Origin: a virus
Taxonomy: Duplodnaviria > Heunggongvirae > Uroviricota > Caudoviricetes
Direction: 5' to 3' (one strand)
Virus record (IMG/VR): IMGVR_UViG_2802429245_000006
DNA length: 40,663 nt
Part shown: positions 2,186 through 40,663 of the stretch, piece by piece
Numbering within the stretch: the first letter of the stretch is position 1
Layout: every line of letters starts with the position of its first letter
Position numbers and translations under genes: made by a program
Notes under the pieces: model-generated
The model's database searches: none
What the model was told of the DNA's origin: nothing
Seen by the model: the letters and a program-made list of their open reading frames with translations, nothing else

Positions 2186-2234
2186 GATAAAATCCTTACA
2201 GAAAATCGGTGAATGATAGTTTAACGATGACGAG

Positions 2235-8767: not shown

Positions 8768-8803
8768 GATCGATAGCAACGATCGATACCTATTTTATCG
8801 ATC
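8768..8803. promoter_or_regulatory. agn43-type phase-variation switch: three clustered GATC sites (Dam methylation / OxyR operator)
   Basis: GATC at 8768, 8781 and 8800 inside a cgatcg-rich tract about 220-250 bp upstream of the flu start codon. Confidence 0.75.
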
Positions 8804-8922
8804 GTTTTATTCTATTAACAGCAAAGCAGTCACGCAAGAGAAACAGGAGGGGTATGAGGTGTTTGTGTCATGTTTTCAGTTGGTTAACGCAATGTAATCG
8901 GGTATTTCCCCTGGCAGACTGT

Positions 8923-12207: not shown

Positions 12208-12541
12208 CTCGAACCCCAAGACCGGCAATGGAATCGCTTTGTAGAGCTAGAGTTAGTGCCGCATCCTCGTATTGAGCACAGCGAAGCGATTGAGCTAGAC
12301 TATGGCATGACGGGGGGCGCTCTAAAGGTTGAGATTAGAGCGGCCTCGGCAGGCTACTTACTCAGACAATGGAATGTGGATTGTTCTACCAACGCCACAC
12401 TCCAAGATGGTGGAGCTCAATTGTACTTAAAGAACAGAGCAACACTTTATGGAGTTAAAAACATCATGCTAGCTCCAGGGATTGAAAAAGAACTTGGTAA
12501 CTAATGCACAAAAACGAACTTGGCGCAGGGAATAAATTTTG

Positions 12542-15874: not shown

Positions 15875-15877
15875 TTT

Positions 15878-16564
15878 ATGAACTCACCTTGGATATTTCC
15901 TGACAACGCAAAGTTCGGTCGAGTCGTGCCTAAGAACAAAATATATGAGCACAGCGCGGCAAGCACTGGGTTGAAGTCACTTTTTGTAGAGCAAGTAGAG
16001 CAAATCCTTTGGGCTTACAAGCTATCGCCTAGCACGCTGAATATTCCTCAAACCAGTGAGGTCAGTGAAATACAGGTTTTCAGTGTGAAGCTTAAAGGTG
16101 ACTCGATAGACGACAGCGTACTAAAAGCCATTGATTTGGCGATACCTTTTCCCATTCTATTTGAGGTATGGGAAGCTCGCGGTGAGCAAGGCCACTACGT
16201 TGCTTGCTATAAGCGTAAGGCAGAAAATGATCAGTCAAAATGGTTTTGTAGCCGCTATTTACGTTCAGAAACCTTCTATTCAAGTGATTCATTAGCAGTG
16301 ACTTCAGAAGTTTTGGGTTTGCCTACCGCTATCGATATGGCGGAGCTGTATCAAAAGCTTCTTACTCGCTTGTTACCCATACCCCAACGAGCCGCTGAGA
16401 GTATAGAAGAGGCTATTCAACGCCTGGAGGCAATTCAGGCATTGGAAAAGCAAATCTCGCAATATAAGAAGAAGGTTCATGCCGAGAAACAGTTTAACCG
16501 CAAGGTTGAGCTCAATAAGCAGTTAAAGAATTTAAGGTGCGAGCTTCAAGAGTTACTCGCATAA
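15878..16564 (+). CDS. Small accessory protein (DUF4391-like, with C-terminal coiled coil)
   Basis: 228-aa ORF starting 3 nt after the helicase stop. Family assignment is from recalled gene neighbourhoods, not a verified match. Confidence 0.55.
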   Translation: MNSPWIFPDNAKFGRVVPKNKIYEHSAASTGLKSLFVEQVEQILWAYKLSPSTLNIPQTSEVSEIQVFSVKLKGDSIDDSVLKAIDLAIPFPILFEVWEARGEQGHYVACYKRKAENDQSKWFCSRYLRSETFYSSDSLAVTSEVLGLPTAIDMAELYQKLLTRLLPIPQRAAESIEEAIQRLEAIQALEKQISQYKKKVHAEKQFNRKVELNKQLKNLRCELQELLA

Positions 16565-16637
16565 AGAATAAACAATTTCAATCAGTTAAATAGTGCCACA
16601 TGCTTTTTATGCAAGGCATCACGCAAAAGGTGAACAC

Positions 16638-18629
16638 ATGGACAAATTAAAGATGCACAGCCCCGACATGACGCAGCAAAACATAGAGAAAATTCAGGCG
16701 TTGTTTCCGAACTGTGTGACGGAATCAAGAGGAGCTAACGGAGAGCTAAAGTTAGTCATTGATTTTGACCAACTTAAACAAGAGCTATCAAATTCAATCG
16801 TTGAAGGCCCGCAAGAGCGCTATCAGCTGAACTGGCCCGGTAAGCGAGAAGCACTACTAACAGCGAATGCACCTATTGCCAAAACCTTAAGACCTTGTCG
16901 AGAAGAAAGTGTCAATTTTGACACCACTAAAAACCTCTTTATTGAAGGCGATAACCTTGATGCATTGAAACTGCTACAAGAGGCATATATTGGAAAAGTC
17001 AAATTAATATATATTGATCCACCTTATAACACCGGTAATGACTTTATATATGAAGACGATTTTTCTGAAAATGCAGAGAGCTTCTTAATAAAGTCCAACC
17101 AGAAAGATAGTGATGGTAATAAATTAGTAGCGAATACAGAAGCTAATGGCAGATTTCACTCGGATTGGCTAAGCATGATGTACTCACGTTTGAAATTGGC
17201 TCGTAATCTACTAAGTGATGAAGGAGCTGTGATTATCTCAATTGATGAGAATGAACACAGCAACATAGTGAAATTAGGTGGTCTTATATTTGGCGATGAA
17301 AACTTTTGTGGCGAAATAGTCTGGAAAAATAGTAGTAAAAATGACCAGAAATATGTCTCAATACAACACGAATACCTTGTTATATTTGTTAAATCAAAGC
17401 AAAACAATAAGGGGGATTGGGTTGAGAAAAAAGAAGGCCTAGACCAAATTTATCAAGCGTTTGATGGTTTTAAACGCAAACATGGCAATGACTGGGATGC
17501 AATACATGCAGATGCGCTTGAATGGTATAGGAGTTTCCCTGCATCCAATCCAATTTCATCAAGTAAACATTATAGCTGGATGGACGAGCGCGGTGTATAT
17601 TTCCCAGATAATATTTCAGGCCCAAACGATGGTCAGTATGTTTATGACGTCATCCATCCTGTGACTAACAAACCATGCAAAATGCCTTCTACAGGATGGC
17701 GCTATCCAGAATCAACGTTAATTGAAAGAATAGCTGATAATCGAGTGCACTTTGGAAAGGATCATAAAACTGTTCCAAACAATAAAACGTATCTAAAAGA
17801 TACTGAATATCAGAGCCTTACGAGCATGCGCTTCGTTGATGGTCGCAGCGCTTCTAAAAGGCTGCAAACCCTTTTCGGTGATAAAGTTTTTACAAACCCT
17901 AAAGATGAAATTTTATTAAAAGATTTATTTAAAGCAATTGGTGTATCAGAAAAAGATATAGTCCTTGATTTCTTTGCAGGTTCTGCATCGACGATACATG
18001 CTGTTTTTGAACTCAATAAAGAAACTGGCAGTAATTGTTCGTGTATCCTAGTGCAGCTTCCAGAAGATCTGAAAGAAATGTTAAAAACGGCTAAAGGTTC
18101 TGCTAAGAAAGTCACGCAGAACGCTATCAATTATTTGAAAAATAAAGGCCTACCACAAACAATTAGTGAAATTGCAAAAGAACGTATTCGACTTTCGGGG
18201 CAAAAGTATACCGAAGATTTCGATATTGGATTCCGAGTTCTCAAAGTAGATACCTCCAACATGGCGGATGTGTACTACTCTCCAGATCAAGTTACTCAGG
18301 GTTCGTTAGACTTATTGGTAGATAATATTAAAGCAGACCGCACTGATGAAGATTTACTTTTCCAGGTTCTACTTGATTGGGGCGTCGATTTAACCTTGCC
18401 AATTAGAAAAGAAACGATTCAAGGTAAATCGGTATTCTTTGTCGATGATGATGCACTGGTGGCCTGTTTTGATCTGCGCATAAATGAAGCTTTGATTAAA
18501 GAGTTAGCCACAAAAGAGCCACTTCGCGTAGTGTTCCGTGATGACGGCTTTGAGTCTGATGCAGTAAAAATCAATGCTGAGCAGATTTTCAAGCAAGTGT
18601 CGCCACATACTGAAGTTAAAGCGATATAA
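16638..18629 (+). CDS. mod: Type III Mod-like N6-adenine DNA methyltransferase (beta class)
   Basis: Catalytic motif [12 protein letters not shown] precedes AdoMet motif [12 protein letters not shown], the order typical of Type III Mod. ATG at 16638 with AAGGTG upstream; the ORF-track frame begins 15 codons earlier. Confidence 0.85.
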
Positions 18630-18638
18630 GGAGGGATC

Positions 18639-18728
18639 ATGACAAATTTTACCGGATTAAAATTTGCACACAGCCTTGTCGCAGACAAGGTGTGCCCGAA
18701 GTGTTGCGTACATGGAGGTGCGCAATGA
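18639..18728 (+). CDS. Possible 29-aa leader peptide (uORF) coupled to res
   Basis: ATG at 18639 is 4 nt after AGGAGG; translation [29 protein letters not shown]; its TGA overlaps the res ATG (ATGA at 18725-18728). Confidence 0.3.
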
Positions 18729-21700
18729 AACTTAAGTTCAAAGTCCAACCTTATCAAACTGTTGCCGTAGAGTCGGTTGTTGACTGCTTTGCGGGGCAAC
18801 CTAACACATCCGGCGTTACCTACCGAATCGACCCTGGCGTTGCCAAGGATAAGTTTGGCAATGCTGGTTGGGATATGAGCGACCAAGACGGTTTTAAAAA
18901 TGCAGAACTCGCGATCACTGAATCGCAGTTATTGCAAAATATTCATGGTGTTCAAAGTAGACAGAACCTCCCTGTTTCAGAAGCGTTAGTCAGCAATGCT
19001 AGCGCTAAGATTAATCTCGATGTTGAAATGGAAACCGGTACTGGTAAGACATATTGCTACATCAAAACCATCTTTGAGATGAATAAGCGCTATGGCTGGA
19101 GCAAATTTATTATCGTTGTGCCTAGCATCGCCATTCGTGAAGGTGTTTACAAGTCGCTGCAAATCACAGGTGAGCATTTTGCTCAGAATTACGACGGTAA
19201 AAAGGCCCGGTTCTTTATCTATAACTCGAAACAATTGCACCAGTTAGAGAGTTTTTCTTCTGACAGTGGCATCAATGTGATGGTCATTAATATTCAAGCC
19301 TTTAATGCTTCAGGAAAAGACAATAGACGTATTTATGAAGAGTTGGATGACTTTCAGTCTAGGCGTCCTATTGATGTTATTAGTGCAAACCGTCCAATCC
19401 TGATTTTGGATGAGCCACAAAAGATGGAAGGCAAGAAGACATTAGATGCCTTAGCCAAATTCAAACCACTGATGGTACTTCGATATTCGGCCACGCATAA
19501 GACAACACATAATAAAGTGCATCGCCTGGATGCGCTTGACGCTTATAACAATAAGCTGGTTAAGAAAATTGCCGTTCGTGGTATTTCAGTAAAAGGCTTG
19601 GCGGGAACGACAGCCTATCTATATTTGGAATCCATCGAGATCTCGAAAAAAATGCCAGTGGCTCGCATTGAGATCGAAGTTAAACAACAAAATGGTATTA
19701 AACGCATACCCAAGAAGGTTACTAAGGGCGATAATCTTTTTGATCTTAGCAATGGTCTGGACCAGTACCGTGACTTTGTGGTTACTGATGTCAACGCGAT
19801 TAACGACACGGTTGAATTCAAAAATGGCCATGTTTTAACCACGGGCGATGCGACGGGAGACGTGACCGAAGAGACCATTCGCCGAATACAGATCCGCGAG
19901 ACAATTAAAGCGCACCTTGAAAAAGAAAAAACACTTTTTAACCAGGGTATAAAGGTTCTCTCTCTCTTTTTTATTGACGAAGTCGCAAAGTATAGGGACT
20001 ACTCTCAAGCCGATGAAAAAGGTGATTATGCTCGCGTTTTTGAAGAAGAGTACTCCTTGCTTGTACAGGAATATCTTGATGAGTTGACTCTTTTACCGAG
20101 TGAGCAGACTGATGCCTATAAAGCCTATCTATCGGCCATTGAAGGCTCCAGAACGCATAATGGTTACTTCTCAATTGATAAGAAATCAAATCGTCTTCAG
20201 AACCCCGGCTTTAAAGTCCGTGGTGAAGATGCCGGGCTATCAGACGATGTAGATGCTTATGATTTGATTCTAAAAGATAAGGAAAAGTTACTTTCGTTTG
20301 AAGAGCCTACTCGGTTTATCTTTTCACATTCGGCCTTGCGCGAGGGGTGGGATAATCCAAACGTATTTGTCATGTGTATGTTAAAACACAGCGACAACAC
20401 TATCTCTCGTCGTCAAGAAGTTGGGCGTGGTTTACGTCTGGCCGTCAATAAACATGGTGACAGACAAGACCATCCGGCAACTGTGCATGAAATTAATGTT
20501 TTGTCGGTGATTGCAAGTGAAAGCTATAAAGACTTTGTCACGAATCTGCAAAAAGAGATCAGCGAGTCTCTCTCAGCGAGACCTAGAAAAGCAGATGAAG
20601 CTTATTTTACGGGTAAGACAATTACAACAGCTGATGGACCTGTAGAAGTAACACCTGTCATGGCTAAGCAAATTTATAAGTATTTGCTTAAAAATGATTA
20701 TACCAATGACGTTGACGATTCAATTGCGCCATCATTCCACCAGGCTAAGGCTAGTGGACAGTTAGCGCCAATGCCTGCTGAGTTAGAGCCTTACCGCGAG
20801 CAAATATTGACCCTGATTGACGGTGTTTATAGTGAAGCGCAATTGCCAGGTGTTGGTGATGATCGTAAACCTAAAAACAATCCGTTGAATGCTAATTTTG
20901 ATAAGAAAGAGTTTCAGGAGCTTTGGCACAAAATCAATCGCAAAGCGGTTTATAAGGTTGATTTTGATTCGTCTGAGTTGATTAAAAATTGTATTCGGGT
21001 ACTCAATAAAGAGCTTAAGGTAACGCCTCTTCAGTACACGATTCAAGATGGTGTTCAATTGGATGGCATTACCGACGAACAACTCAAAGCTGGACAAAGT
21101 TTCAAGGTGAAAAACACTGAGACTGAAACTCATCAATCGAGCATTCATTCTGCTGTTCGTTATGACTTGGTTGGTAAGTTGGCTGAAAATTGTGTGCTGA
21201 CTCGCAAAACAGTCGCCGAAATACTGATGGGTATAGAACCTGTAGTATTTGCACAATTTAAGCAGAACCCTGAGCATTTTCTCGCTGAGGCTTCACGCCT
21301 TGTGAAAGAGCAAAAGGCATCTGTGATCATCGAGAAGCTATCATATGATCCAACGAACGAATCTTATGATGTTGATATATTCACGGCAGAGCAAAAAATC
21401 ACTGATATGACAAAAGCCGTTAGTGGCGTTAATAAGCATATTTATGATTATGTTGTCGTTGATTCACAAGGCATTGAACGGGACTTTGTTACCGAGCTTG
21501 ATACAAGCAAAGAAGTCGTGGTTTATGCAAAACTGCCTCGTGGTTTTCTGATACCGACGCCTGTTGGCGACTACAACCCTGATTGGGCGATTTCTTTCAA
21601 AGAAGGAAGTGTTAAACACATTTACTTTATTGCAGAGACTAAAGGAACGATGTCTTCGCTTGAATTGCGTGGCATAGAAGATCGCAAGATTGAATGTGCT

Positions 21701-21802
21701 AGGAAATTCTTTGAAAAAATTAATGCAGAGATAACGAGTGAAAACGTCAAATATGATGTTGTAACGAGTTACTCGAAATTAATGGAAGTCATAAGCGGTT
21801 AG
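18725..21802 (+). CDS. res: Type III Res-like restriction subunit (helicase plus C-terminal PD-(D/E)xK nuclease)
   Basis: Walker [11 protein letters not shown], motif [13 protein letters not shown]-like RYSATHK, motif [12 protein letters not shown]-terminal ...NPDW...FIAETKG nuclease-like motif. ATG at 18725 with GGAGG upstream. Confidence 0.85.
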
Positions 21803-28346: not shown

Positions 28347-29978
28347 ATGGTAACTCGGACAATGCAACAAAAGTATGATCGTGTTTTATCTGGCGAATCC
28401 CATCCATTCCCTGGCATATACGAGGCGGTTTCCGAACAACTCCTTTTGCTCATCTTTAAGGCTCGTCAGCTATATCAGAATCCAGAATATCGCCCCTGGT
28501 TTGAAGAACAGCACAGAGTTCTCTCTGCATTACGTGCTAATACAGAGCTCTTGAGAATATTTAGAGAACAAAGAAACGCGGAAGAACCAGAGCTTATTAT
28601 TAAAGAATCTACATTACCCCTACTCACTAATTCTAATCTTACAGATGCGCTTAATATTATGTGCCATTTATACAATGGTTTTGATGAAGGAAATATCAGT
28701 CTGAAAACCTGGGGGGCGATGCAAGAGGTACAGACAACATCAACCTTTATCAGCCCGGGACCGAGAACCTGGAAAACACCTGAACTGGCAAAGTTTGTAG
28801 GAGATGATTTATTTAATATTCTGACTGAATGTAAAGCCTGGAGTTCACCAATTCCAGCAGAAACCCGACAGGGCTATTGCCATCAGGATCTGTCTGTTGC
28901 ACACTCCTGCACCTCAGAGTTACTGGCACACCTGAATCAATACCATGAAATTGATGAATCAGCAATACTTGCCAGAGTTATTGGTATGACGGTTAACGGA
29001 TTCTACAAGAAAAATAATACAGACCTCCCAGAATGGCTATCCCCCTTTAAAGAGGAACATAAAATATTCAGAGATTGTCTGGAGCAAAAGACCGAGGATG
29101 TAATCAGACTGAAAGAACAACTGTTGAAAACAGGACGTTCAGAATTCGTGAATAATTTGTGTCGGGTCGCCAACTGGTATGAAATTAAGTCAATATACGA
29201 TGAATATGTCCGTCTTTATGCCAATGAAATCATTGGTTGGTTCAACAAAACCATGGAATATTTTAAACCAACAGATTTTATCCGATATACATGGAAATTC
29301 GCAACAGTTACTCCAGGTAAAGAGACAGAAACCAAGCATACAACTGCATGGGAAAAGGATTATTGCCAGATAACTATACAACGTGATGAACTTCTGAGAT
29401 TGATTCACACGAATACCCTTCAGGATGCAGTAATTTATCTTTGCCATTGTCTGCAGAAGAAATACAAGAAATCATCCCAAAATGAGATAGAGTTTCCAGG
29501 AATAAAACCTCCGGCATCAGAGAGTGAAATTAATATAACAGATAGTTTTGAATTTTATTCTCTCCTGGAGCTCAGTAAAGATAATGAGAGACGGCTGGAA
29601 ACATTTCAAAAATGGTATGAAAAAAATAAAGTTTTGTTAGAAAGTCATAAACAAAAACGAACAGAGAAGATTGACGTTGCCGTACGACTTGTAGGGCTGA
29701 AAGCCTATGATCTGCATGAAGGGATTCCGGATAGTCCAAAACGAAAAGTTAAAGATGGCATAAATGAAGACATCAAAGCCGATACCAGTTTACGCCTGCC
29801 AAAGACAAATATAAGTGATACGTCGCTAAACCGTTATCGCCGCACTGTTAAGGAGATTATCAATAACGAAATCGACGCATTCCTGTTGGAACAGAAGAAA
29901 AAAAATAAAAGATTTCCCTACAGTGAAGATAGAGATGTGATTCGACCTTTATGGGGAAAATGCCTGACCGGGCAGTAG
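28347..29978 (+). CDS. Hypothetical protein, 543 aa, low GC, function unknown
   Basis: Long clean ORF in AT-rich DNA, divergent from alpA; no motifs recognised. A second possible ATG lies at 28362. Confidence 0.6.
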   Translation: MVTRTMQQKYDRVLSGESHPFPGIYEAVSEQLLLLIFKARQLYQNPEYRPWFEEQHRVLSALRANTELLRIFREQRNAEEPELIIKESTLPLLTNSNLTDALNIMCHLYNGFDEGNISLKTWGAMQEVQTTSTFISPGPRTWKTPELAKFVGDDLFNILTECKAWSSPIPAETRQGYCHQDLSVAHSCTSELLAHLNQYHEIDESAILARVIGMTVNGFYKKNNTDLPEWLSPFKEEHKIFRDCLEQKTEDVIRLKEQLLKTGRSEFVNNLCRVANWYEIKSIYDEYVRLYANEIIGWFNKTMEYFKPTDFIRYTWKFATVTPGKETETKHTTAWEKDYCQITIQRDELLRLIHTNTLQDAVIYLCHCLQKKYKKSSQNEIEFPGIKPPASESEINITDSFEFYSLLELSKDNERRLETFQKWYEKNKVLLESHKQKRTEKIDVAVRLVGLKAYDLHEGIPDSPKRKVKDGINEDIKADTSLRLPKTNISDTSLNRYRRTVKEIINNEIDAFLLEQKKKNKRFPYSEDRDVIRPLWGKCLTGQ

Positions 29979-30064
29979 ATCACTGAGGGGATAACAGCCC
30001 GGTTATCCCCTGTTTGTTCTGCTTCAGGTTGCCAGAGCTCTAGGAACACGAGGCAATCGGCAAA

Positions 30065-30661
30065 TTATGCGGCTTTTCCATTAACAGATTCGGCCACAAG
30101 AACGACAGTGTGTTTGTTTCGCTCAGGATGTTCACTCCAGATTTCTGATTCCGGGATGCTTTCCCCGTCATAACTGATCCGTTCGCCATCAAACGGGTAA
30201 TACCGTGCGGAATCAGTATCTAAAATAAACACCTTCAGATTCGTTGAACGACGCGCAATATGCTGCCAGAGAGCTTTTCCTCCTTCATATTGCTCGTTAT
30301 CACTTAATAGTACAACGCCCGCTTTTGTGACTATCGTTTCATAAACAAACGTTGCAAGACCAACATCGCGTACAGCTCCATCGACAACAATCCCTTCAAT
30401 CTGAGCAACATCCTGTTCTTCCCAGAATTTCTGGACAAACACGCCTTCAAGTCGGGGACGACGCTGAAGCTCCAGAGTGGCAACAACCTTATGGCGAACA
30501 TCACCATCAATAACAGAAGGTGCAGCTTCGATTACCGCAGCAAACGGAGTCTTTGGATCCCAGATGATCTGGTAAAGCACGCCCTGAATAGTTACTCCAT
30601 CCAGTATCGAAAAACGACGGGCTACAGTAGCAGGGGAGTAAGACATTGGAATTACAGCCAT
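30065..30661 (-). CDS. Hypothetical protein, 198 aa, function unknown
   Basis: ATG at 30659-30661 with GAGGGG upstream; the ORF-track start at 30691 is a GTG without an RBS. Confidence 0.55.
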   Translation of the reverse strand: MAVIPMSYSPATVARRFSILDGVTIQGVLYQIIWDPKTPFAAVIEAAPSVIDGDVRHKVVATLELQRRPRLEGVFVQKFWEEQDVAQIEGIVVDGAVRDVGLATFVYETIVTKAGVVLLSDNEQYEGGKALWQHIARRSTNLKVFILDTDSARYYPFDGERISYDGESIPESEIWSEHPERNKHTVVLVAESVNGKAA

Positions 30662-30790
30662 TTTAGAATCCCCTCTGAGTAATACAGGCACGAAAATTTA
30701 CCTCAATAATTATAGTAAACAATACCAGAGCCAGGCGCATCAACAATACTCATCAATTGTACTCAAGTCGTACAACGATCAGGAACGCCC

Positions 30791-32107
30791 TCACCTTCTA
30801 CCAAACAGATTAACAACATTATTACCTGTCTGCTGTTGGTGGTTATTAACCCGGTCCTCCCAGATCTCAAGTGCTCTGCGTTTTTCTGGCAAATAATCGT
30901 ATCGATCATAATGTTTTGAACTGACATCGTTCAACGCATGATTTTGAATACGATCGCGGATTTCCTTACTGATTCCAGCTTCTCCCATTAACGTTTTACA
31001 GGTCCGACGTAAGTCACGTGCTGTAAAAATTTTAAAGTCAGGATTACAAGCCCGGAAATACATGATAGCGCGAGCCAGACTGTCCGTACGAACCGGACGC
31101 TTACCATTAGTCGAAAGCGGGAAAATGTAAGGGCTCGATTTTTCTTTTGTTAACTCCTGCACACAAGATAATTCCTGTAATGCTGATTCAGTCAACGGTA
31201 TCAAATGTTCTCGCTTATTTTTAGAGACATCCGCAGTCACCAGCAGCGTTTTTTGCTGAAAATCAACATCACACCACTGACTGGCGATCATTTCGAAGGG
31301 ACGTTGCCCCCCGGTATAGATACAGAATCGGATCAAATGTTGCATCAATAATCCAACGTTGGTTGCTTCAGCAAAATGTTCCATTAGAAAACGCAACTCT
31401 TCGAGTGTCAGCCAGGTGTCACCGACTTTTTCAGCAGATGACTGTTTCGGTATCACTGATACCGGATTGGCCTCCAGCCCAAAAGTAATCCCTACACTTG
31501 TGTTCATCGGATCGTTATCAGCTTTCAGACCATAGTTAAATGCAGCCATCAGGTAAGAACGGATCCGGTTAGAGTGAACCACTGCACCGCGCTGAATGAT
31601 CCCGGCCAGGATATGTTTAATCTGTCCGGAAGTCACATCTTTAGCTTTAGTCTCACGGGGGATCACTGTATAGCATTCATTTTCAAGGCGTTTCAGAACA
31701 TCCTGCCATGTTCTCTTATTATCAATTTTCATTTTGTTAACATAACCATGAATCAATGCTTCAAATGAGCCCTGTGATTGATGGAGTTGTATCCGCTGCT
31801 GTTCTGCAAGCTGTTGTCGCTCCAGTTCTGTCTGGGGATCCTTTCCTTCAATGAGCCAGGCACCATACTTTTTTGCCAGTTCATTCGCTGTAGCCAGTTT
31901 CATCTCAGGCCATATACCCAATTGAATGAATCTTTCTTTTTTCCCTTTTTCCACGTAATAGCGGAAATAGAAAATTTTGCTGCCAGAAGACTGAACTTTG
32001 ATGCCAAGTCGTCCAGTGCCACGTTGAGAACTGTTGCTCCAGACATAGAACGATGTCTTTTTTGCTTTCAATGCTCGGATAGCTGTTTCAGTTAGATTGA
32101 CGGCCAT
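30791..32107 (-). CDS. int: Tyrosine-type site-specific integrase (P4/CP4-like)
   Basis: 438 aa; C-terminal catalytic region with ...HALNDVSSKHYDRYDY... and ...RDLRRTCKTLM... typical of tyrosine recombinases; ATG at 32105-32107. Confidence 0.9.
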   Translation of the reverse strand: MAVNLTETAIRALKAKKTSFYVWSNSSQRGTGRLGIKVQSSGSKIFYFRYYVEKGKKERFIQLGIWPEMKLATANELAKKYGAWLIEGKDPQTELERQQLAEQQRIQLHQSQGSFEALIHGYVNKMKIDNKRTWQDVLKRLENECYTVIPRETKAKDVTSGQIKHILAGIIQRGAVVHSNRIRSYLMAAFNYGLKADNDPMNTSVGITFGLEANPVSVIPKQSSAEKVGDTWLTLEELRFLMEHFAEATNVGLLMQHLIRFCIYTGGQRPFEMIASQWCDVDFQQKTLLVTADVSKNKREHLIPLTESALQELSCVQELTKEKSSPYIFPLSTNGKRPVRTDSLARAIMYFRACNPDFKIFTARDLRRTCKTLMGEAGISKEIRDRIQNHALNDVSSKHYDRYDYLPEKRRALEIWEDRVNNHQQQTGNNVVNLFGRR

Positions 32108-32303
32108 AGAACCTCTTTTCTAAACCAGTAACAATCAAAATAACTCGTAAATTTGGGTCAGGTAATGGGTCAGGTAACGATCGTACAATGGAGAAAAAAC
32201 GGAACCAAGCGGAAACAGAAGCAATTACATAATTACTTGATTATAAACAATTAATAAAACAATTACGAACAAACCAAAACAATATAGAATGGACTTGCCT
32301 CAT

Positions 32304-32350
32304 GACTCATAATCGCTTGGTCGTTGGTTCAAACCCAACAGGGGCCACCA
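32304..32350 (+). other. tRNA-Ile(CAU) (ileX/ileY-like) 3' fragment: anticodon loop through CCA, no 5' half; putative att core
   Basis: GACTCATAATCGCTTGGTCGTTGGTTCAAACCCAACAGGGGCCACCA matches the 3' 47 nt of ileX as recalled, with compensatory T-stem changes. The preceding 29 nt do not form the acceptor/D arm. Confidence 0.7.
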
Positions 32351-32358
32351 TATCTATC

Positions 32359-32395
32359 AAGGGGTTACGTTAACAGCGTGACCCCTTCGTTTTTT
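32359..32395 (+). terminator. Intrinsic terminator immediately 3' of the tRNA fragment
   Basis: Stem aaggggttacg/cgtgacccctt with one mismatch, followed by TTTTTT at 32390-32395. Confidence 0.55.
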
Positions 32396-32906
32396 CTAGG
32401 ATACCTATAGGATACCGTGACAGAGTATAAGCAGGTATAAAAACAACAAGTTACGCAACATCATACCTGTCATGAAACTTTAACTATCCGACATGATAGC
32501 TGGTCGATGATCACGGATAATCCGTTATGTGGATCCCCATATCGGCATCAGACCCACCAGCGTGAAGCGTTTTTCATTTTTCGCGGGTATAAAAAATCGA
32601 TGGGGCTGGCAGTCCGGAAGACGTCAGGTCACAGGGATTTGACCCGCCCCTCCCTGTGCATGAGCACAATAAGTAACCGAAGGCGGAATTCCGCCCTCGG
32701 TACTCACATATGAGAAACGATATTTCTTCCACCGATACCCTTTATTTGGGTATCGCGAGTAAGCCCCAAAATCTGGGTGTTACTCTTACTACCCAAACTA
32801 CGGGTAGTTTCCGTAATTTCATGGTCGAGTTGCAGATCTGCAACTCACCCACCAGCGCAACGCTGAAAGCCAGTCAGTAAACTGGCTTCGGTCATTGTGC
32901 ACTACG

Positions 32907-33449
32907 TTACTTGTCTTTATCCGGCTGAAACTTATCAGGCACATTTCCGGTAGTTTCCATCAGATAATCGGACAGCATTCGCGGGATGTTTTCATCAAGT
33001 TTTGTGCATGCGTTACAGGCTCTGACAACTTCTTTTTTCAGGCCATCCAGCATGACGGGGGTCATCTGTGGGAAGCTCCTTTGCATAGTAAGCGGCAGGC
33101 TGTCCATGATTGATGAAATCTGACTCGCCAGTTTTGAAAGCGCGTACATGCAAAACTCTGTATCAATCACGTCACCGCGATCGCGCTCGTTTTTAAGTTC
33201 CTGCGCCTCCGCCTGTGCTGTCAGTAATCTGATCCTGACTCGTAAGAGTTCATCATCATCAATCTCGCCTTTGTCGTTTGTAAGCTGGCTAATTGCATTG
33301 TTAACCCTATTGTCTATCACGCTGGCAACATCATAAAACGCCTCACGGCCTTTACGTTCAACGGGAGTCACTCCCCACTTGTCGAATGCTGTAGCACTTA
33401 CCCGGCAGCTTTGCGCCATGGTTTTTTTGTTCATCAGGTGCGATTTCAT
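32907..33449 (-). CDS. Terminase small subunit, lambda Nu1-like
   Basis: ...LTAQAEAQELKNERDRGDVIDTEFCMYALSKLASQISSIMDSLPLTMQRSFPQM... parallels lambda Nu1 as recalled. Start uncertain: ATG at 33449 or 33434. Confidence 0.75.
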   Translation of the reverse strand: MKSHLMNKKTMAQSCRVSATAFDKWGVTPVERKGREAFYDVASVIDNRVNNAISQLTNDKGEIDDDELLRVRIRLLTAQAEAQELKNERDRGDVIDTEFCMYALSKLASQISSIMDSLPLTMQRSFPQMTPVMLDGLKKEVVRACNACTKLDENIPRMLSDYLMETTGNVPDKFQPDKDK

Positions 33450-33650
33450 CAATATCCCAACTTGGTCAAGGTTTCAGGTTGGTGTGTTGGTGTTATCTTT
33501 CCCTTTTTATTCATGGAGATAGAGCAAACAACAAAACCACCACCACCACCCTGAAAAAGCTCATAAATAGCGAAAAACCGCGAGGTCGCCGCCCCGTAGC
33601 CTACCGGATCGCCGGAAAGGACCCGCCAGCCAGAACGGGCCCTAATTTCA

Positions 33651-34034
33651 TCAACCAATCAACTTATAGCGACCATCCCGTGCATTGCGGCGTACACGCT
33701 CAATCTTGAGGCATAGCGCCGCATCTGGCTTTTTTGGGACAGGTACGCGGCAATATTCAGAAGCTCGAGGAATATTGTTTATCCAGTCGATCACTTCGCT
33801 TAAATACCAGGCCTTACGCCCTTCCGTAACCTGTACGCGTTCGGGGAACTCTCCGCGAGCCTCAAGGTTTAGCAATGTGCGACGGCTAAGGGTAGTAAGT
33901 TCCATCACCTGATTCATATCAACAAGGCGTTCACTTAAACGCATTTTGTCAGCAATAGCCTTTAATTCCTCTACTGCTGGATCCGGATACATCATTTCGG
34001 CAATTGGCTTAAGGTCATTGTAATGATTCTGCAT
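33651..34034 (-). CDS. HTH DNA-binding protein (AlpA/excisionase-like HTH with N-terminal extension), 127 aa
   Basis: ATG at 34034 with AGGGGGAT upstream; contains ...LTTLSRRTLLNLEARGEFPERVQV... HTH-like segment. Confidence 0.5.
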   Translation of the reverse strand: MQNHYNDLKPIAEMMYPDPAVEELKAIADKMRLSERLVDMNQVMELTTLSRRTLLNLEARGEFPERVQVTEGRKAWYLSEVIDWINNIPRASEYCRVPVPKKPDAALCLKIERVRRNARDGRYKLIG

Positions 34035-34045
34035 TGTATCCCCCT

Positions 34046-34387
34046 TTACACACGAGCCAGCGGCTGAACAGAAATACCTGAGCCAACAAACGCGGCAACC
34101 TTTGCCGACAGTTCTTTTACAGACTCAGGCCAGTTCAGAGCATCAACATTTAAAACACCTGTCTTATAAACCTGTGCCTGTGTTTTTTTCGCTGTGTCGA
34201 TTTGTACAGCGGAAACATAAACCGCTTTGCCTGCGCTCGTTCCATCCCATACCACTAGCGCACCAGTTGCATCTTCCTGCATCAGTGGCGTAAACGCAGG
34301 TATTACCCCTTTATTGGCTGAAAATATCCCCAGCGTAGTAACCAGTGCTTCAGTGCCAGACATGAGTTCAGTGTAATGAGTAGCCAT
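34046..34387 (-). CDS. Head decoration protein, lambda gpD-like
   Basis: 113 aa; ...PLMQEDATGALVVWDGTSAGKAV... parallels the gpD pattern PLMLD...LVAWDGT; strong RBS AAGGGGGAG. Confidence 0.65.
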   Translation of the reverse strand: MATHYTELMSGTEALVTTLGIFSANKGVIPAFTPLMQEDATGALVVWDGTSAGKAVYVSAVQIDTAKKTQAQVYKTGVLNVDALNWPESVKELSAKVAAFVGSGISVQPLARV

Positions 34388-34396
34388 TGCTCCCCC

Positions 34397-35443
34397 TTAG
34401 CCAATGCGAACGGTAACAAAACGATTGATGCGGGCCGGTATTGGCTGTGGTGCTGAATGTGTCTGCACATATTCAATAGCCGGATCACCAGGCACAATAT
34501 AGTTTTTCGGTGCAAGTTCGGCTTTAGTCAGCCCCATCCGAATTAGCTCCGGATCCTGAATACCGCCATAAGCGACAATCCCCTGAAGAGCCGTATTGCC
34601 AAGCACCATCAAATCAGGATCAAGGAAATATTTTTCAGTTCCGTCCTCGTCGGTATAACGCCCGCTGTAAACAACAATCGCAACATCGCCCATATACCCT
34701 TTAAAACTCACCGAATCACCAAGGTCTTTAAGGGCCGTTTCCAGTTCGGAATTAGAACCACGACGGGTATCCAGAGCCTCTTTTATCGCTCTGAATGAAC
34801 GGTATTTCTTCCATACATTACCGCCCATAATGATGATATTAGTGACGCCCTCACTAAATTCTGCGTAGCTCTCAATATCATCATTTGGATCAAAAGTTTC
34901 TTTATCCTTACCTGACCACTCAGCACCGCCAGACTGCGTGATAATATTTTGTGGTTTTATATTCCAGTCCAGTTCATAACGTTCAATACCATCGCCCTCA
35001 ATGATATTTTTCCCCGTTGTGATTGCCTGAACAGCAAGCCATTCAATACGTGCACGTATAGCTTTAGCCTGATTTACAATCGCCTGTTTAACTTTAATAT
35101 TACGCGCCCCAAAAGCATTGTATTGTTCAGGTGATACACCAGCAGGGCGCACAGCTAACTTATTTGGATCAATGCTGCTTTTCGGTTTCATATAGCCAGG
35201 GCGAATTGTTTTTGATTCGTATCCCTCATCTCGTGAAACTTTACTGCCCACCATAGGAGAGCAAAACGCCGCGATCGGGATATTTGGATCGTCGATCGTA
35301 TCAAGAATAATGTCTCTCGATTCAAACATTACCGAGCGAGTGAAAAACAAACTGGTAAACAACGCATTTAATTTTTTTTGCACATCTTCAGCATTAGCCA
35401 CCTGCACAAGCTGTGTAGGCGAATATAAATCAACCATACTCAT
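34397..35443 (-). CDS. Major capsid protein, lambda gpE-like
   Basis: From the ATG at 35443 (AAGAGG upstream): MSMVDLYSPTQLV... and a long block ...NIITQSGGAEWSGKDKETFDPNDDIESYA...DTRRGSNSELETALKDLGDSVSFKGYMGDVAIVVYSG... closely parallels lambda E. Confidence 0.85.
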   Translation of the reverse strand: MSMVDLYSPTQLVQVANAEDVQKKLNALFTSLFFTRSVMFESRDIILDTIDDPNIPIAAFCSPMVGSKVSRDEGYESKTIRPGYMKPKSSIDPNKLAVRPAGVSPEQYNAFGARNIKVKQAIVNQAKAIRARIEWLAVQAITTGKNIIEGDGIERYELDWNIKPQNIITQSGGAEWSGKDKETFDPNDDIESYAEFSEGVTNIIIMGGNVWKKYRSFRAIKEALDTRRGSNSELETALKDLGDSVSFKGYMGDVAIVVYSGRYTDEDGTEKYFLDPDLMVLGNTALQGIVAYGGIQDPELIRMGLTKAELAPKNYIVPGDPAIEYVQTHSAPQPIPARINRFVTVRIG

Positions 35444-35721
35444 CCTCTTTACATTCATTACAAATAATTGTGAATATATTCTATTACCGATGTCTGCTAT
35501 GCGAATACATGCAACCAAGTGCAATGTTGTATAAAATATGCCGTGACAACTTCAGTGCTGATAATTCGTGTTAATGTATTTACTTCCTTTGGTCGGGATT
35601 TATGTAGCATGCCGGAAAATCTATTTTTTTCCGGCATCTTTTTGTTTGCAGAATTTAAAACGGTATATTATCGCCGTACGGATCATCATTCCCCGACTGT
35701 TGTTTTGCCCTGTTCAGTGCG

Positions 35722-36078
35722 TCAGTGGCCTGCCCCTGCTGGCCTTTTTTTGCCGCCCGGTCGCGCCGTTCGCGCACTGATTACGCTGTCTGCGATAACC
35801 TGCCAGCCCTGCCGCGTTTCGCCGTTCTGGCCTGTCCACTGGCTTACCTGCATGTTACCCGCCACGCTCACCAGTTCGCCTTTGTGGTGTTTTGCCAGTG
35901 CGTCGGCCTGTCTGCCAAACGCCAGGACGGATAACCACATCGTCGCCGTTCCGTCATCTGCCTGGCTGCACGGAAGGGGGACCGCCATACTAGCCATCGC
36001 CATTTGTGTACCCTTGCTGGTGGTCTTTAACTGCGGGTCAGCCACCAGCCGTCCGTAAGCCGCTATCTGTGCTGTCAT
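35722..36078 (-). CDS. SSB-like OB-fold protein (118 aa)
   Basis: ...YGRLVADPQLKTTSKGTQMA...VSQWTGQNGETRQGWQVIADSV... resembles single-stranded DNA-binding proteins; start overlaps the upstream stop (ATGA). Confidence 0.5.
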   Translation of the reverse strand: MTAQIAAYGRLVADPQLKTTSKGTQMAMASMAVPLPCSQADDGTATMWLSVLAFGRQADALAKHHKGELVSVAGNMQVSQWTGQNGETRQGWQVIADSVISARTARPGGKKRPAGAGH

Positions 36079-36317
36079 GCTGTCTGCTCTCCGGTTTTAA
36101 CGTTGATGGTTGTTACCTGTTCCGCTTCGGCAATCTCCCGTTCTGTCATCGTGGCAAAGTTTGCAGCTGCCGTTGTCATGAATGCGCTAATCAGTTCGGG
36201 ATGTGCTTTCGCATATCCTTCCCCGGCGTTGCGGTCGATGATTTTTATCGCCACTCTCAGCCAGTGCTCTGTAAGGTCAATAGCGCGGTAGTGTGGTTGT
36301 TTGCGGTTTGCCTTCAT
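36075..36317 (-). CDS. Hypothetical protein (80 aa)
   Basis: ORF between the iteron array and the SSB-like gene; stop overlaps the SSB-like start. Confidence 0.4.
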   Translation of the reverse strand: MKANRKQPHYRAIDLTEHWLRVAIKIIDRNAGEGYAKAHPELISAFMTTAAANFATMTEREIAEAEQVTTINVKTGEQTA

Positions 36318-36356
36318 AGTTCAGATCTCAATTTTTCGTATATATATACAAAACAG

Positions 36357-36680
36357 TGCGGGTTATGCGGGTTAGCGGGTTAGCGGGTTATCTTCGCTTG
36401 CTAAGTATTTTTTATTCATTAATATCAATACATTACAAAATTAACTGTTTACTGTTTAGCCGTGGCGTAACCCGCAAAATGCTCAAAATAACCCGCAAAC
36501 GGGGTTTTTTCTGCGGGTTACGCGTGGCTGTTTGCTGTCACTTCCTGTTATTCATCTGCGGGTTATAATCGCACTTTTGTGGGTTATAACTGCCGTTTTG
36601 CGGGTTACGTGCGGGTTATTGATTTCCTTTTTATTCATGCAGTTAATGCACTTATACACAGAGTAACCCACATAACCCGC
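36357..36680. repeat. Iteron array: at least 13 copies of GCGGGTTA / TAACCCGC in both orientations (putative replication origin)
   Basis: Four tandem copies at 36357-36392 and dispersed copies at 36468, 36488, 36513, 36558, 36579, 36600, 36611, 36664 and 36673; adjacent AT-rich tatatata tract at 36340-36350; immediately downstream of the primase-helicase-like gene. Confidence 0.75.
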
Positions 36681-36703
36681 AACTTTTCACCTCACACAGG
36701 GGG

Positions 36704-38827
36704 TTAATCTTCTGCCTCAGGCTGGAACATCAGCACGTAAAAAACATGCTGCTTCCCCCCAATTTTGCCGAGAGCCTTTTTCTTGTAACGGCGATCGTTA
36801 CCCGCTTCCAGCATTCCGGCAGCACTCAACGCGCGGGCAAAGTGGGACGGGTTAAATCCCTGTGCGATCTCCCCCTCAAACACATGAGGAAACGTGTAAA
36901 AACGGAACTCATCATCTTCATTTCTGATACTCCCCTTTCTGTATCCGGCAAGGTCTTTAATCGGTAAATCACGTTCATCACTGTTTGGGTAAGGAAGGTA
37001 TCGACTGAACCCGAACGACGACAAAAACGCCTCAGCCTGTTCAACCATCTGTTTAAATTCCCTGTTACCCGTGCCGAACTCCTTCACCCAGGCATTAAAG
37101 TTATGCTGTATTGCGTCCCGGCATTCCTGCGCGGCCCAGCCAGTTACATGACCGGAAAGCACAAGCGCGGCCTCCAGTATGGCGAAACGCTCACCCACGC
37201 GGTGGACCTGCTCGCCGTAGCTCTCCGGTATCAGGTTGCGCCACCGTTCGCGGCATTCCCTTACCGTATCCTTTGCCTCCTGCTGGTGGCCTGCCAGCCA
37301 TTTAACCCACTCACGACCCGCTGCCCCGTGATTTTCTGTCCAGGCATCCTTTAACGCGTCTGCGTGCGCCTTTCCGGTGCTGTATTCGTGAAAGTGCGTG
37401 GCTTTTTCCATCGGAACGTTAAGCAGGCGGACAAGCTGCCCCGCTTTGACTTTTATCCCCTCCGTTTTGAGGAATGTCTCAACGTCCATTTCTCCGGTGC
37501 TGATTGCCACCGTGCGCCAGTGTTTTATCTCCCGGTTGCCGCCGTCCTTCGCCCCCTGTAATTTCCCGGAACCGTTAAACAACGTATAGGCTGACGTGGA
37601 CACCTCCCGCGCGTTTCCGGCCTGGCCTATTTCATCCAGGGGTAACAGCCCGTCGTTGTGCGCCTCTGCCTCGTTAGCGATACCTAACGCTGTGCCGTAC
37701 CAGGTCAGCCGTTGTGCGTCCGGCTCTCCCCATAAACTTGATGCGATGTTCTGCGTGGTGGTTTTCCCTGCCGATGACTGTTCGAAAAGATGTACCCCGA
37801 AGCCGTCAGCACCAACAAGGCCAATCAAAGGTGCTGCCAGTGACGTGGCAACACCCAGCATCATGGACGGATTGCCACCAGCCAGCCGCGCCACGCAGTC
37901 GCGCCAGCCCTCCGACGTACCCGCAACCGAATAGCCATTAACAGTGGCACTTTTTCCGGTAAACAGGATCGGTTTTTCAGAATCACCAATGATTGAGCCG
38001 TCCGGCATGATATACGCGCCAAAATGCCAGCCCGTTGTTGTGCTTAGCTGCCATTCCTCATGGCTTCCGCTTAACTGCATCCAGTCAGCCAGGATAGCCC
38101 TGTATTTGCCGTTTGTTGTCACGTTCAGCCCGTGATCTTTAAGCAACCGCCAGCCGTCACGGTCGCCAATGCCACCACACGGGATCGCCATTGTGATGAC
38201 TTCATGGTTTGCTAATTTTTTCCAGCGCATCACGCGGTAATGCTCTTTACCGATCGTCCCTGTTCCCAGTAGTTCAAGCGGAGAACATAACCACGTCTCA
38301 GGCCGGATAATTTCGCCTGACTGCTTATCCACTTTGGGCGTTACCCAGAAAACACCATCGACGCGACTTTCAACGCGGGGCTTTAATTCATCATCCTGAT
38401 AGCATGGCTCTTTTTTCTTTACAGGCAGTTCAACTACCTTTTTCTTTTCCGCCTGCTCTGCCCGTTCACGTTCCAGATATTCACGCCAGTTCTCCCGTTT
38501 CTGGCTGTGCATTCCTTCAGGGTAATAATCAGCATCCCTGACACCTGCCGCTGCCAGTTTCTGCCCGATGGTATTAACAAGCCCCGGACGCAATAACCCC
38601 GCCTGATAGAGACGCACGCGATAGCGTCCGTCCGGTACGATTTGCAGGTTGTCCAGTTCGGCAAGTTGTTGCTCTCCAAGCCAGACAGGAGGCACGTTAT
38701 CGCCAGCCAGTCGCCCGTCCTGTTCCTGCCACTGCTTCGCATGTGCCCACGCATCACTACCCGCAAAAATGATGACTTCCGTCATTTTGTCACGTGGCTG
38801 GTGTTTTAAATTTGGCGCTTTTTTCAT
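36704..38827 (-). CDS. Primase-helicase-like replication protein (P-loop ATPase, DUF927/P4-alpha-like)
   Basis: 707 aa from the ATG at 38827; Walker A-like FEQSSAGKTT and Walker B-like LLPLDEIG; position next to the iterons. Confidence 0.7.
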   Translation of the reverse strand: MKKAPNLKHQPRDKMTEVIIFAGSDAWAHAKQWQEQDGRLAGDNVPPVWLGEQQLAELDNLQIVPDGRYRVRLYQAGLLRPGLVNTIGQKLAAAGVRDADYYPEGMHSQKRENWREYLERERAEQAEKKKVVELPVKKKEPCYQDDELKPRVESRVDGVFWVTPKVDKQSGEIIRPETWLCSPLELLGTGTIGKEHYRVMRWKKLANHEVITMAIPCGGIGDRDGWRLLKDHGLNVTTNGKYRAILADWMQLSGSHEEWQLSTTTGWHFGAYIMPDGSIIGDSEKPILFTGKSATVNGYSVAGTSEGWRDCVARLAGGNPSMMLGVATSLAAPLIGLVGADGFGVHLFEQSSAGKTTTQNIASSLWGEPDAQRLTWYGTALGIANEAEAHNDGLLPLDEIGQAGNAREVSTSAYTLFNGSGKLQGAKDGGNREIKHWRTVAISTGEMDVETFLKTEGIKVKAGQLVRLLNVPMEKATHFHEYSTGKAHADALKDAWTENHGAAGREWVKWLAGHQQEAKDTVRECRERWRNLIPESYGEQVHRVGERFAILEAALVLSGHVTGWAAQECRDAIQHNFNAWVKEFGTGNREFKQMVEQAEAFLSSFGFSRYLPYPNSDERDLPIKDLAGYRKGSIRNEDDEFRFYTFPHVFEGEIAQGFNPSHFARALSAAGMLEAGNDRRYKKKALGKIGGKQHVFYVLMFQPEAED

Positions 38828-39123
38828 TTCTGCTCTCTCCACGCGGCAATCATGTTTTTCAGTTCCTGTAGTTTTTTATCCACATTCACACGTGACACAT
38901 GGTTATTTCTGGAAAGCGGGATTTCCCGCCTGAATCTGCTAATAAAGATCTCCACGTTCAGCGAACTATGAAATGAATAGCCATCACGAATAAAATACAC
39001 ACGGTCAAACATTATCGATTTTACTGTTACTCTGTTGCCGTTCTTATCCCGATAAATAGCGCCGGGGATAATTTTGGGATGTGCATAACCGCTGGCAGTC
39101 AAGCCAGATAAATACGTTCTCAT
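38824..39123 (-). CDS. Hypothetical protein (99 aa)
   Basis: ATG at 39123; stop overlaps the primase start (ATGA). Confidence 0.45.
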   Translation of the reverse strand: MRTYLSGLTASGYAHPKIIPGAIYRDKNGNRVTVKSIMFDRVYFIRDGYSFHSSLNVEIFISRFRREIPLSRNNHVSRVNVDKKLQELKNMIAAWREQK

Positions 39124-39129
39124 GATTAT

Positions 39130-39450
39130 TTATCCCCGATTTGAATCAGTATTCGCTTTCTTTATGGCATTTAATGCATCTGTGGCATTTTCAATGGTGC
39201 ACCGTAACGAAATATCAAAATGTCCAAGCATTGCCAGTAACAAACCGATATTACCCATATCAATGCGCATGGCCTTTTCGTCATAGTCCTCATTTTCTGA
39301 CGCATGCCACATCAGGCTACCAATTGACGCAACGGCCATTGATATATTGTCAGTCGCCCCATCCGCAGCGGAATAAACCTTTTTAGCAATATCATGCTCA
39401 CAGTTAAAATGCGGATTAATCAGGTACTGGTAATTTGACATATCAGGCAT
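39130..39450 (-). CDS. Hypothetical protein (106 aa)
   Basis: ORF in the same co-directional gene string; no family recognised. Confidence 0.45.
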   Translation of the reverse strand: MPDMSNYQYLINPHFNCEHDIAKKVYSAADGATDNISMAVASIGSLMWHASENEDYDEKAMRIDMGNIGLLLAMLGHFDISLRCTIENATDALNAIKKANTDSNRG

Positions 39451-39646
39451 GGCACACCCCCTGACGAATACGGGCGGCGAATACCATCACGCAGCCAGCC
39501 GGGGATTGCTGGCGTGCTTCCTGTTCGCTGGTGGCCACGATGGTAATCACACGCGGTTTTGCGGCGCTCAGGGCGATAAAACGCCAGGCGAATTTATTCA
39601 GGTTGTGCGAATCCCGCCCTTGCGGGTGTATGGTATGATTTCTCAT
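39443..39646 (-). CDS. Hypothetical small protein (67 aa)
   Basis: ATG at 39644-39646 with GAGGTA upstream; corresponds to the C-terminal part of the 334-aa ORF-track frame, which I consider spurious as a whole. Confidence 0.35.
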   Translation of the reverse strand: MRNHTIHPQGRDSHNLNKFAWRFIALSAAKPRVITIVATSEQEARQQSPAGCVMVFAARIRQGVCHA

Positions 39647-39742
39647 AGCTACCTCGATACTCTCGTTATCGTTGGTGGTTAGAAGCCCTGCGAGTGGTAA
39701 CGACACTTGCGGGGCTTTGTTTTTTGTTGCACTTACTGTTAA

Positions 39743-39786
39743 TGTACGTACGTAATATTGATGATAATAGGAGTTACGTACGTACA
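39743..39786. promoter_or_regulatory. Operator-like inverted repeat overlapping the RBS and start of the RHH gene
   Basis: TGTACGTACGTAA (39743-39755) and TTACGTACGTACA (39774-39786) are exact reverse complements, separated by 18 bp containing TAGGAG. Confidence 0.5.
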
Positions 39787-39977
39787 TGTCAACATTAAAG
39801 CGGGATAAATCACCACGCGGCGAGGGATGGTCGCCGACATTCCAGATACGAATTAGCAAAGAACTACGCCAGCAAGTAAACGAGGCAGCAACCGCCGATG
39901 GCCTAACCCTCGGCAATTGGTTTAAAGAATTAGCTCGTGCCGAACTAAAGCGACGTGGCATTGAACCTAAAGGCTGA
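39786..39977 (+). CDS. Ribbon-helix-helix (Arc/MetJ/CopG-like) putative repressor, 63 aa
   Basis: ...FQIRISKELRQQVNEAATADGLTLGNWFKELARAEL... has the beta-strand/helix pattern of RHH proteins; divergent from the satellite gene string. Confidence 0.5.
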   Translation: MSTLKRDKSPRGEGWSPTFQIRISKELRQQVNEAATADGLTLGNWFKELARAELKRRGIEPKG

Positions 39978-40453
39978 TGTATGACTGAAAAGCAGACCGA
40001 TAACAAACTTTCTCTACCAGAGAATAAACCAGCAGGCTTCTTACCAAGAAAAATCCTTGATGAGATCAAACGCCGCCAGCGGCGCAAGGCCAAAGAGCTG
40101 GAGTAACCATCACCAGCGCCGTGGTGCGGTGAACTGTGGCGCACAGGGTTACAGGTATCTACGATGACTGACAAATCATTAAAGAAATTATCCTCATCCA
40201 AGAAAAAACAACGCAAAAATGCGGTAAACGAACATGAACCGGAGAGATTCGCACCATGTGCGTTTATCCTTGAGAAGTACCTTAAAGAGTATTCTAGGAA
40301 AATACGCTCATTGCAGGCATGGCAGCGAATCGAGCCAGACTGATAGCATTGCCCACCAGCCAACAACCTGGTATTCTGGATATGCTCAAGTTTAGTGTTA
40401 TGCCACTGGCGGCCCTCTGCGGTCGCCTTTGTTTTATGTGCCATCACTCCCCC

Positions 40454-40663
40454 TTACACCGTCTGCGTTCTGCGAGTGGATGCAAGATAAGCATCGAGAT
40501 CAGTGCGCATATACAGCACTTTGCGCCCCAGCTTATGGAAAGGGATTTTTACCTTGCCAGTACAGGCCCAGTTCGCCAGCGTTTGATTGTTAACGCCAAG
40601 GTAGGCAGCAGCTTCAGCACGTGTAAGGCGGTCAGTTGATAAATCAGATTTCTTTAAATTCAT
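40454..40663 (-). CDS. AlpA/excisionase-family HTH protein (69 aa)
   Basis: ATG at the window edge (40661-40663); ...LTRAEAAAYLGVNNQTLANWACTGKVKIPFHKLGRKVLYMRTDLDAYL... is an excisionase/AlpA-like HTH. Confidence 0.65.
   Translation of the reverse strand: MNLKKSDLSTDRLTRAEAAAYLGVNNQTLANWACTGKVKIPFHKLGRKVLYMRTDLDAYLASTRRTQTV

Follow-up and report, generated by a model that had tools for sequence, protein, structure and literature searches.

In the familiar arrangements at leuX (intB) and ssrA (intA), the integrase gene adjoins the intact tRNA gene and is co-oriented with it. In the passages of the Islander description considered here, an island is defined by an integrase gene inside it and by the correct relative orientation of the displaced fragment and the tDNA, and no requirement is set there on which end holds the integrase gene (PMC4383910). 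The same source reports 125 arrays of at least two among 3919 islands and places 2083 of the 3919 islands in an anticodon-centred class (PMC4383910). According to the TIGER study, a second element can enter either of the restored cores (PMC7192596). The ileX gene is known as a site of integrative elements and of the LAA island (PMC7067040, PMC7545054), and ileY/ileX is listed as the site of phage 186 (PMC3448106). PICI attachment sites, in turn, are stated not to be used by temperate phages (PMC6092414).

Here we analysed a stretch of 40,663 nucleotides from a Caudoviricetes record (IMGVR_UViG_2802429245_000006; hereafter the window) in which part of a tRNA-Ile gene lies between an integrase gene and a phage satellite. 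We consider this fragment very probably to be the middle recombination site of two independent elements, a CP4-like island and an EcCICFT073-like satellite, arranged in tandem at E. coli ileX.

The ileX fragment and its two neighbours

A 47-nt core, GACTCATAATCGCTTGGTCGTTGGTTCAAACCCAACAGGGGCCACCA, occupies window positions 32304-32350 on the plus strand and corresponds to the stretch from the anticodon loop to CCA of the tRNA-Ile(CAU) gene ileX. It occurs once in the window, with a chance expectation of 0 at up to 3 mismatches. Alignment with K-12 and with the junctions of five comparator genomes showed that the core is identical to the ileX allele of element-carrying genomes and agrees with K-12 ileX at 43 of 47 positions, from tRNA position 30 in the anticodon stem through CCA. 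The four differences from K-12 comprise a compensatory T-stem pair (C50:G64 to T:A) and a change of GT to AC in the T loop. The bases to the left of the core (..ggacttgcctcat) bear no relation to ileX, and the 5' half is absent. ARAGORN found no tRNA gene in the whole window and calls intact ileX in comparator loci L002 (FDAARGOS_1262), L006 and L007; Rfam gave no tRNA match in the window either, including a permissive search of 32100-32900. The preliminary description, made from the letters alone, had recognised only a 3' half running from the anticodon loop to CCA and had named an overlooked complete gene as the finding that would overturn it. The 3' half is confirmed, and no complete gene exists at this place. 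Lacking a complete cloverleaf, the core is not a functional tRNA gene. A second copy of the core was searched for within the window and not found, since the expected outer copies fall just beyond both window ends. A weak Rfam match to the Plastid-ycf2 5' UTR at 32297-32348 on the minus strand (20.4 bits, E = 0.18) probably reflects the overlap of that leader with antisense trnI-CAU and has no functional meaning here. On the side of the island and at the core, the window contains the following features:

1-846, minus strand: DUF4942-family gene, the first of the left island (tRNA-Ile followed by DUF4942 in many genomes)
30791-32107, minus strand: tyrosine integrase of 438 aa with P4-type architecture (Pfam Arm-DNA-bind_3, 1.4e-14; Phage_integrase, 1.4e-10; Phage_int_M)
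32108-32303, no strand: island P arm, from the integrase start codon to the core; the same arm abuts the native core and nfeF in island-only genomes
32155-32165 and 32167-32177, plus strand: two tandem GGGTCAGGTAA repeats, putative arm-type sites for the island integrase, in a block that recurs in the other arm
32304-32350, plus strand: core with the variant T arm, a single exact match; putative island attR core and satellite attL core

The left island is CP4-like, measures 34-78 kb in complete E. coli genomes and ends in the integrase at 30791-32107. This integrase starts 196 bp to the left of the core and points away from it, in good agreement with the roughly 200 bp and the opposite orientation first described. 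Each feature named in that description is borne out. The repeat-containing block TTGGGTCAGGTAATGGGTCAGGTAA lies at 32153-32177, and the same 25-nt block is present just past the intact-ileX island terminator in GPEC996. In GPEC996, to which window positions 1-2210 are 98.8% identical, a co-oriented intact ileX ends 99 nt short of the counterpart of window position 1; A36 is arranged alike. Hence, the left end of the window lies just within the left island, and its right end within the satellite.

The island carries several IS fragments and a varied cargo. At 12539-21802 lies a module encoding a large helicase, a DUF4391 protein, a DNA methyltransferase and a type III restriction endonuclease; several large E. 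coli plasmids have the same module at ~97% identity. An Ag43-like autotransporter ORF (5701-8625, minus strand), an Rfam match to the IS102 sRNA (8569-8805, minus strand, 69.8 bits) and a GTPase-family ORF (8854-9645) lie in 5701-9645, a CP4-44-like flu/yeeP module inside the island. Two genes at 28347-30691, coding for 543 aa (plus strand) and 208 aa (minus strand) and having no Pfam match, are kept beside the island integrase in A36, GPEC996, PEC41 and 14EC033.

The satellite, ~10.5 kb long and EcCICFT073-like, starts at the core fragment. Its features in the window are listed below; the last four were assigned by Pfam and by PGAP annotation of near-identical loci.

32351-32906, no strand: satellite P' arm, the non-coding left end, contiguous with intact ileX in 55 genomes
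32359-32395, plus strand: satellite-borne intrinsic terminator; the same sequence lies 3' of intact ileX in FDAARGOS_1262 (L002, 12048 onward)
32397-32418, plus strand: TAGGATACCTATAGGATACCGT, in which AGGATACC occurs twice (32398-32405 and 32409-32416); candidate arm-type sites of the satellite integrase
32676-32701, minus strand: terminator downstream of the terS-like gene, within the satellite P' arm
32907-33452, minus strand: Nu1-like small-terminase protein of 181 aa (Pfam Phage_Nu1, 9.8e-23)
33651-34034, minus strand: AlpA-family HTH protein
34046-34387, minus strand: lambda gpD-like decoration protein
34397-35524, minus strand: gpE-like capsid protein
36704-38842, minus strand: DUF927 primase

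The gene content of a PICI (int, alpA, pri-rep and packaging/capsid genes) was found with Pfam and PGAP in the window, L001 and L002; the satellite has neither tail nor lysis genes. The Nu1 match covers the C-terminal part only (profile positions 77-161 of 164), and the protein is possibly Rpp-like. In FDAARGOS_1262 (L002) the same 22-nt block, TAGGATACCTATAGGATACCGT, and an inverted copy of it adjoin the satellite integrase. In several genomes a further ~530 bp, including a small ORF of 94 aa, separates the satellite terminator from the terS-like gene; this segment is missing from the satellite of the window (L002 12048-13130 compared with window 32351-32906).

The ileX locus in comparator genomes

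When 3 kb around the fragment were used as a query, the matching chromosomal region was the ileX locus, an integration hot spot flanked by mug and nfeF (yqjH). In complete genomes this locus was found in the following arrangements:

Empty site (K-12): mug and a native-T-arm ileX, followed by the native terminator and, 53 bp from the tRNA, by nfeF
Satellite only (FDAARGOS_1262): an intact ileX carrying the variant T arm, then the terminator and downstream sequence of the window and an element of ~10.5 kb
Satellite only, right end (FDAARGOS_1262): a displaced core of 46 nt beside nfeF, its T arm and terminator being those native to E. coli
Island only (14EC033): integrase (minus strand) and 196-bp arm as in the window, joined to a core of native type and from there to the native terminator and nfeF
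Island only, far end (SCEC020023, PCN061, 74-2): a variant-T-arm ileX, then the island terminator (a third type) and the DUF4942 gene
Tandem as in the window (A36, GPEC996, PEC41): island, fragment and satellite in this order

The comparison with an empty site that had been proposed at the outset is provided by K-12, which shows an uninterrupted attB in the order mug-ileX-nfeF. The satellite of FDAARGOS_1262 encodes, in order, a Nu1-like small terminase, an AlpA-like HTH protein, gpD-like decoration and gpE-like capsid proteins, SSB, a primase, an Icd-like protein, an HTH protein and the integrase (minus strand). We used 14EC033 for the attR side only, its left flank stopping short of ileX and appearing rearranged.

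We counted these junctions in 5426 complete E. coli genomes. The hybrid junction (island arm, core, satellite arm) is present in 3 genomes, intact ileX joined to the satellite arm in 55, and the island arm joined to the native ileX downstream flank in 352. Each element is thus found without the other, so that island and satellite are independent and individually common, and their pairing is rare. A query of ileX with the island P' arm gave 5283 genomes at 80% coverage, which is non-discriminating because 176 of its 276 nt are conserved mug-side flank and tRNA; only the matches at 100% were used.

These counts bear on the reading that survives best among the alternatives, namely a single composite element made up of island and satellite, in which the fragment would be an internal attP or what is left of one. 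The two parts are indeed contiguous in the window and in three complete genomes, and one IMG/VR provirus call (L094) crosses their junction. However, the parts occur alone at ileX in 55 and 352 genomes and as a pair in 3, and each has its own bounding cores. Their integrases are at most distantly related: both the island enzyme and the satellite enzyme (taken from L002) carry the P4-family domains PF13356 (Arm-DNA-bind_3) and PF00589, but they share only 21% identity over 147 aa. Moreover, the arm repeats of the two elements differ, and either element has its own set on both of its arms. A site with the island P arm on one side and the satellite P' arm on the other is the attP of neither element, nor of a composite. 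We therefore regard a composite element as very improbable.

The junctions in the comparators favour the tandem arrangement and support the earlier suggestion that the fragment is an integrase identity segment acting as an att repeat. Three roles had been offered for it. Two of them apply together, since the fragment is at once the island's attR-type repeat and the satellite's att site (attL); the remaining one, an attP inside a single larger element, falls away, each element being found alone at ileX with its own integrase, arm repeats and flanking cores.

T-arm alleles, terminators and predicted recombination at the shared core

The variant T arm, GTTGGTTCAAACCCAAC, is carried by the attP of both elements. 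Wherever the native E. coli allele occurs at these junctions, it belongs to the copy displaced towards nfeF, and every variant copy is supplied by an element; the exception is GPEC996, which has a native T arm at the middle site. Hence, the variant is element-borne, as the preliminary description had proposed from the compensatory T-stem differences; that proposal was right, and it is the pattern of alleles across the junctions that bears it out. An intact tRNA with the variant T arm was found in 93 stretches from species representatives across Enterobacterales, among them Klebsiella, Kluyvera, Kosakonia, Citrobacter, Serratia, Dickeya and Edwardsiella, and a mug homologue lies near the variant-T-arm ileX at 60 of the 80 loci retrieved. 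The variant is thus the ordinary ileX allele of many Enterobacterales, the allele of E. coli itself being the unusual one. Several Klebsiella prophages share the 45-nt core, as do more than 120 contigs of IMG/VR, many with a length of ~33 kb. Judging from these alignments, elements that insert at ileX overwrite both the T arm and the terminator of E. coli, the T arm with the pan-enterobacterial allele.

We suggest the following sequence of events. Each element would bring a tyrosine integrase together with an attP in which the 3' part of ileX, anticodon loop to CCA, is duplicated. On entering the gene, it would regenerate a full ileX at the left end, with the 3' half and the terminator of the element itself, and would displace the previous 3' half to the right end, beside the integrase of the element. 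Two elements in line would then leave three cores: an intact ileX, the copy at 32304-32350 and the original E. coli 3' half. The left copy is predicted to be an intact ileX with the variant T arm, followed by the terminator tatacaacaaagggttagc, ~100 bp to the left of window position 1. The right copy, ACTCATAATCGCTTGGTCGCTGGTTCAAGTCCAGCAGGGGCCACCA, is expected beside nfeF, past the satellite integrase and roughly 2 kb beyond window position 40663. In the genome of the window, an intact ileX on the left and the satellite integrase with the third core on the right are thus predicted from comparators that are 94-99% identical.

Lying between the island P arm on one side and the satellite P' arm with its terminator on the other, the middle copy should be the attR of the island and the attL of the satellite, and by its junctions it would serve as both at once. 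Excision of the island would pair the far-left site with the middle site, and excision of the satellite the middle site with the far-right one. As the arm sites are element-specific, each integrase should excise its own element only. The identity block begins at tRNA position 30 for the island and at position 31 for the satellite; together with the first base that distinguishes the alleles, this would place the crossover between tRNA positions 31 and 49, and no more narrowly. Insertion of the satellite first (the island entering the regenerated ileX) and of the island first (the satellite entering the island attR) predict identical sequences, so that the order cannot be told from them. In GPEC996 the middle copy (L004 13307-13351; L221 2139-2183) combines a native T arm with the satellite-type terminator, and the far-right copy is native as well, unlike the window, A36 and PEC41, where the middle copy has the variant T arm. 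One fixed crossover in the anticodon loop between the attP and attB versions of the other genomes does not explain the middle copy of GPEC996, which would need gene conversion among the three repeats or a variant of the satellite attP.

The terminator at 32359-32395 begins eight bases past the core and consists of a 13-bp stem (32359-32387) followed by CGTTTTTTC. Its predicted folding energy is -19.3 kcal/mol (z = -5.7), and none of 200 shuffled sequences was as stable. The native ileX terminator (aaaggctgacg...cgtcagccttttt) differs from that of the window and stays beside nfeF, and a third terminator (aaagggttagc...gctaaccctttt) is island-borne. By its position in the comparators, the terminator of the window is the replacement that the satellite brings for the native one, ending the ileX transcript in satellite-only genomes. 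The preliminary description had credited the fragment with a terminator of its own; the terminator is real, but it belongs to the satellite's version of ileX and does not serve the fragment.

A strong terminator behind the fragment might also suggest that the two together yield a functional small RNA, such as a tRNA-half-like transcript, with a role beyond that of a DNA site. However, we found no promoter-like site on the plus strand in 31900-32303 and no match to an RNA family, and the intact ileX transcript of satellite-only genomes fully accounts for the terminator, which makes this possibility still more remote than a composite element. Least credible of all is a decayed copy of ileX that lost its 5' half by deletion or unrelated insertion and has no role in site-specific recombination: the 5' half is missing and the left island does hold several IS fragments, but the break falls at the identical nucleotide in the anticodon loop in all island carriers, whether nfeF or the satellite follows, the left neighbour is the conserved island P arm with its repeats and no IS end, and an intact ileX stands at the other end of the island.

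If the fragment is the middle site of a tandem, the satellite attL would carry the island P arm, with putative sites for a foreign integrase, in place of a chromosomal B arm. One may ask whether such a hybrid site couples the two elements functionally, by cross-gated excision or by packaging of the adjacent island, which seems to us an outside chance. With such coupling, binding of the island integrase or excisionase could gate excision of the satellite, and vice versa; another possibility is that in situ replication of the satellite could carry the adjacent 32-kb island and its restriction/defence cargo into phage particles.

Comparison with described islands, phages and satellites

Like P4/CP4-57-type islands, the left island has yfjI- and yfjJ-like genes and an AlpA-type HTH, its integrase combines Arm-DNA-bind_3 with a tyrosine recombinase catalytic domain, and the target is the 3' part of a tRNA gene. 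The divergent orientation of the integrase had been put forward as an anomaly against such islands. It is not one: in either element int is placed on the anticodon side of attP, and after integration the gene therefore lies at the end of the displaced fragment and points inward. In contrast to leuX-intB and ssrA-intA, the integrase genes of both elements are therefore far from the intact tRNA gene and read away from the displaced fragment. The arrangement is a mirror image of those two, with int on the opposite side of attP yet still adjacent to it.

Phage 186 is similar in that it uses the same target tRNA gene family (PMC3448106). Unlike the satellite it is a complete P2-like phage, and the likeness concerns the family of the target tRNA. 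The satellite resembles EcCICFT073-type PICIs in its size of ~10.5 kb, in int, an AlpA-type regulator, a primase and a small-terminase-like gene, in a capsid homologue followed by a head-decoration homologue, and in the absence of tail and lysis genes (PMC6092414). It differs from EcCICFT073 in having ileX as its attachment site, and the likeness is one of gene content; when EcCICFT073 was looked for in the CFT073 chromosome at 1.39-1.488 Mb, only the icd lambdoid prophage was found there. If the listed site of phage 186 holds, the attachment site of the satellite is shared with prophages, in contrast to what has been stated for PICIs (PMC6092414). The ileX gene is a landing site shared by at least two kinds of element, a CP4-like island and a PICI-type satellite, to which the literature adds phage 186.

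The main value of the fragment lies in annotation, as it marks precisely where one mobile element meets another, the two having been merged by a provirus caller. The IMG/VR provirus UViG_2802429246_000010 (L094) corresponds to window 28347-40663 at 100% identity and spans both elements, taking in the island integrase, two island cargo genes and the satellite. Since this call merges the satellite with the integrase of the neighbouring island, the fragment is useful for drawing element boundaries.

Tandem arrays at tRNA genes are textbook knowledge, and a junction of island and satellite is therefore ordinary; a shared att junction is an already known kind of feature and leaves the current understanding of tRNA-targeted integration unchanged. 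As with displaced fragments in Islander, the identity block of 47 nt runs through CCA (43/47 against K-12 ileX), and the parts of a tandem array were seen in the comparators A36, GPEC996, PEC41, FDAARGOS_1262 and 14EC033. In common with the arrays of Islander and TIGER, the locus in the comparators has a regenerated tDNA at one end, co-oriented displaced 3' fragments and an integrase and a fragment per unit, and its identity block would belong to the anticodon-centred class (PMC4383910, PMC7192596). Overall, we find no difference in kind from these arrays; what sets the locus apart is the pairing of a CP4-like island with an EcCICFT073-like satellite, which is rare (3/5426).
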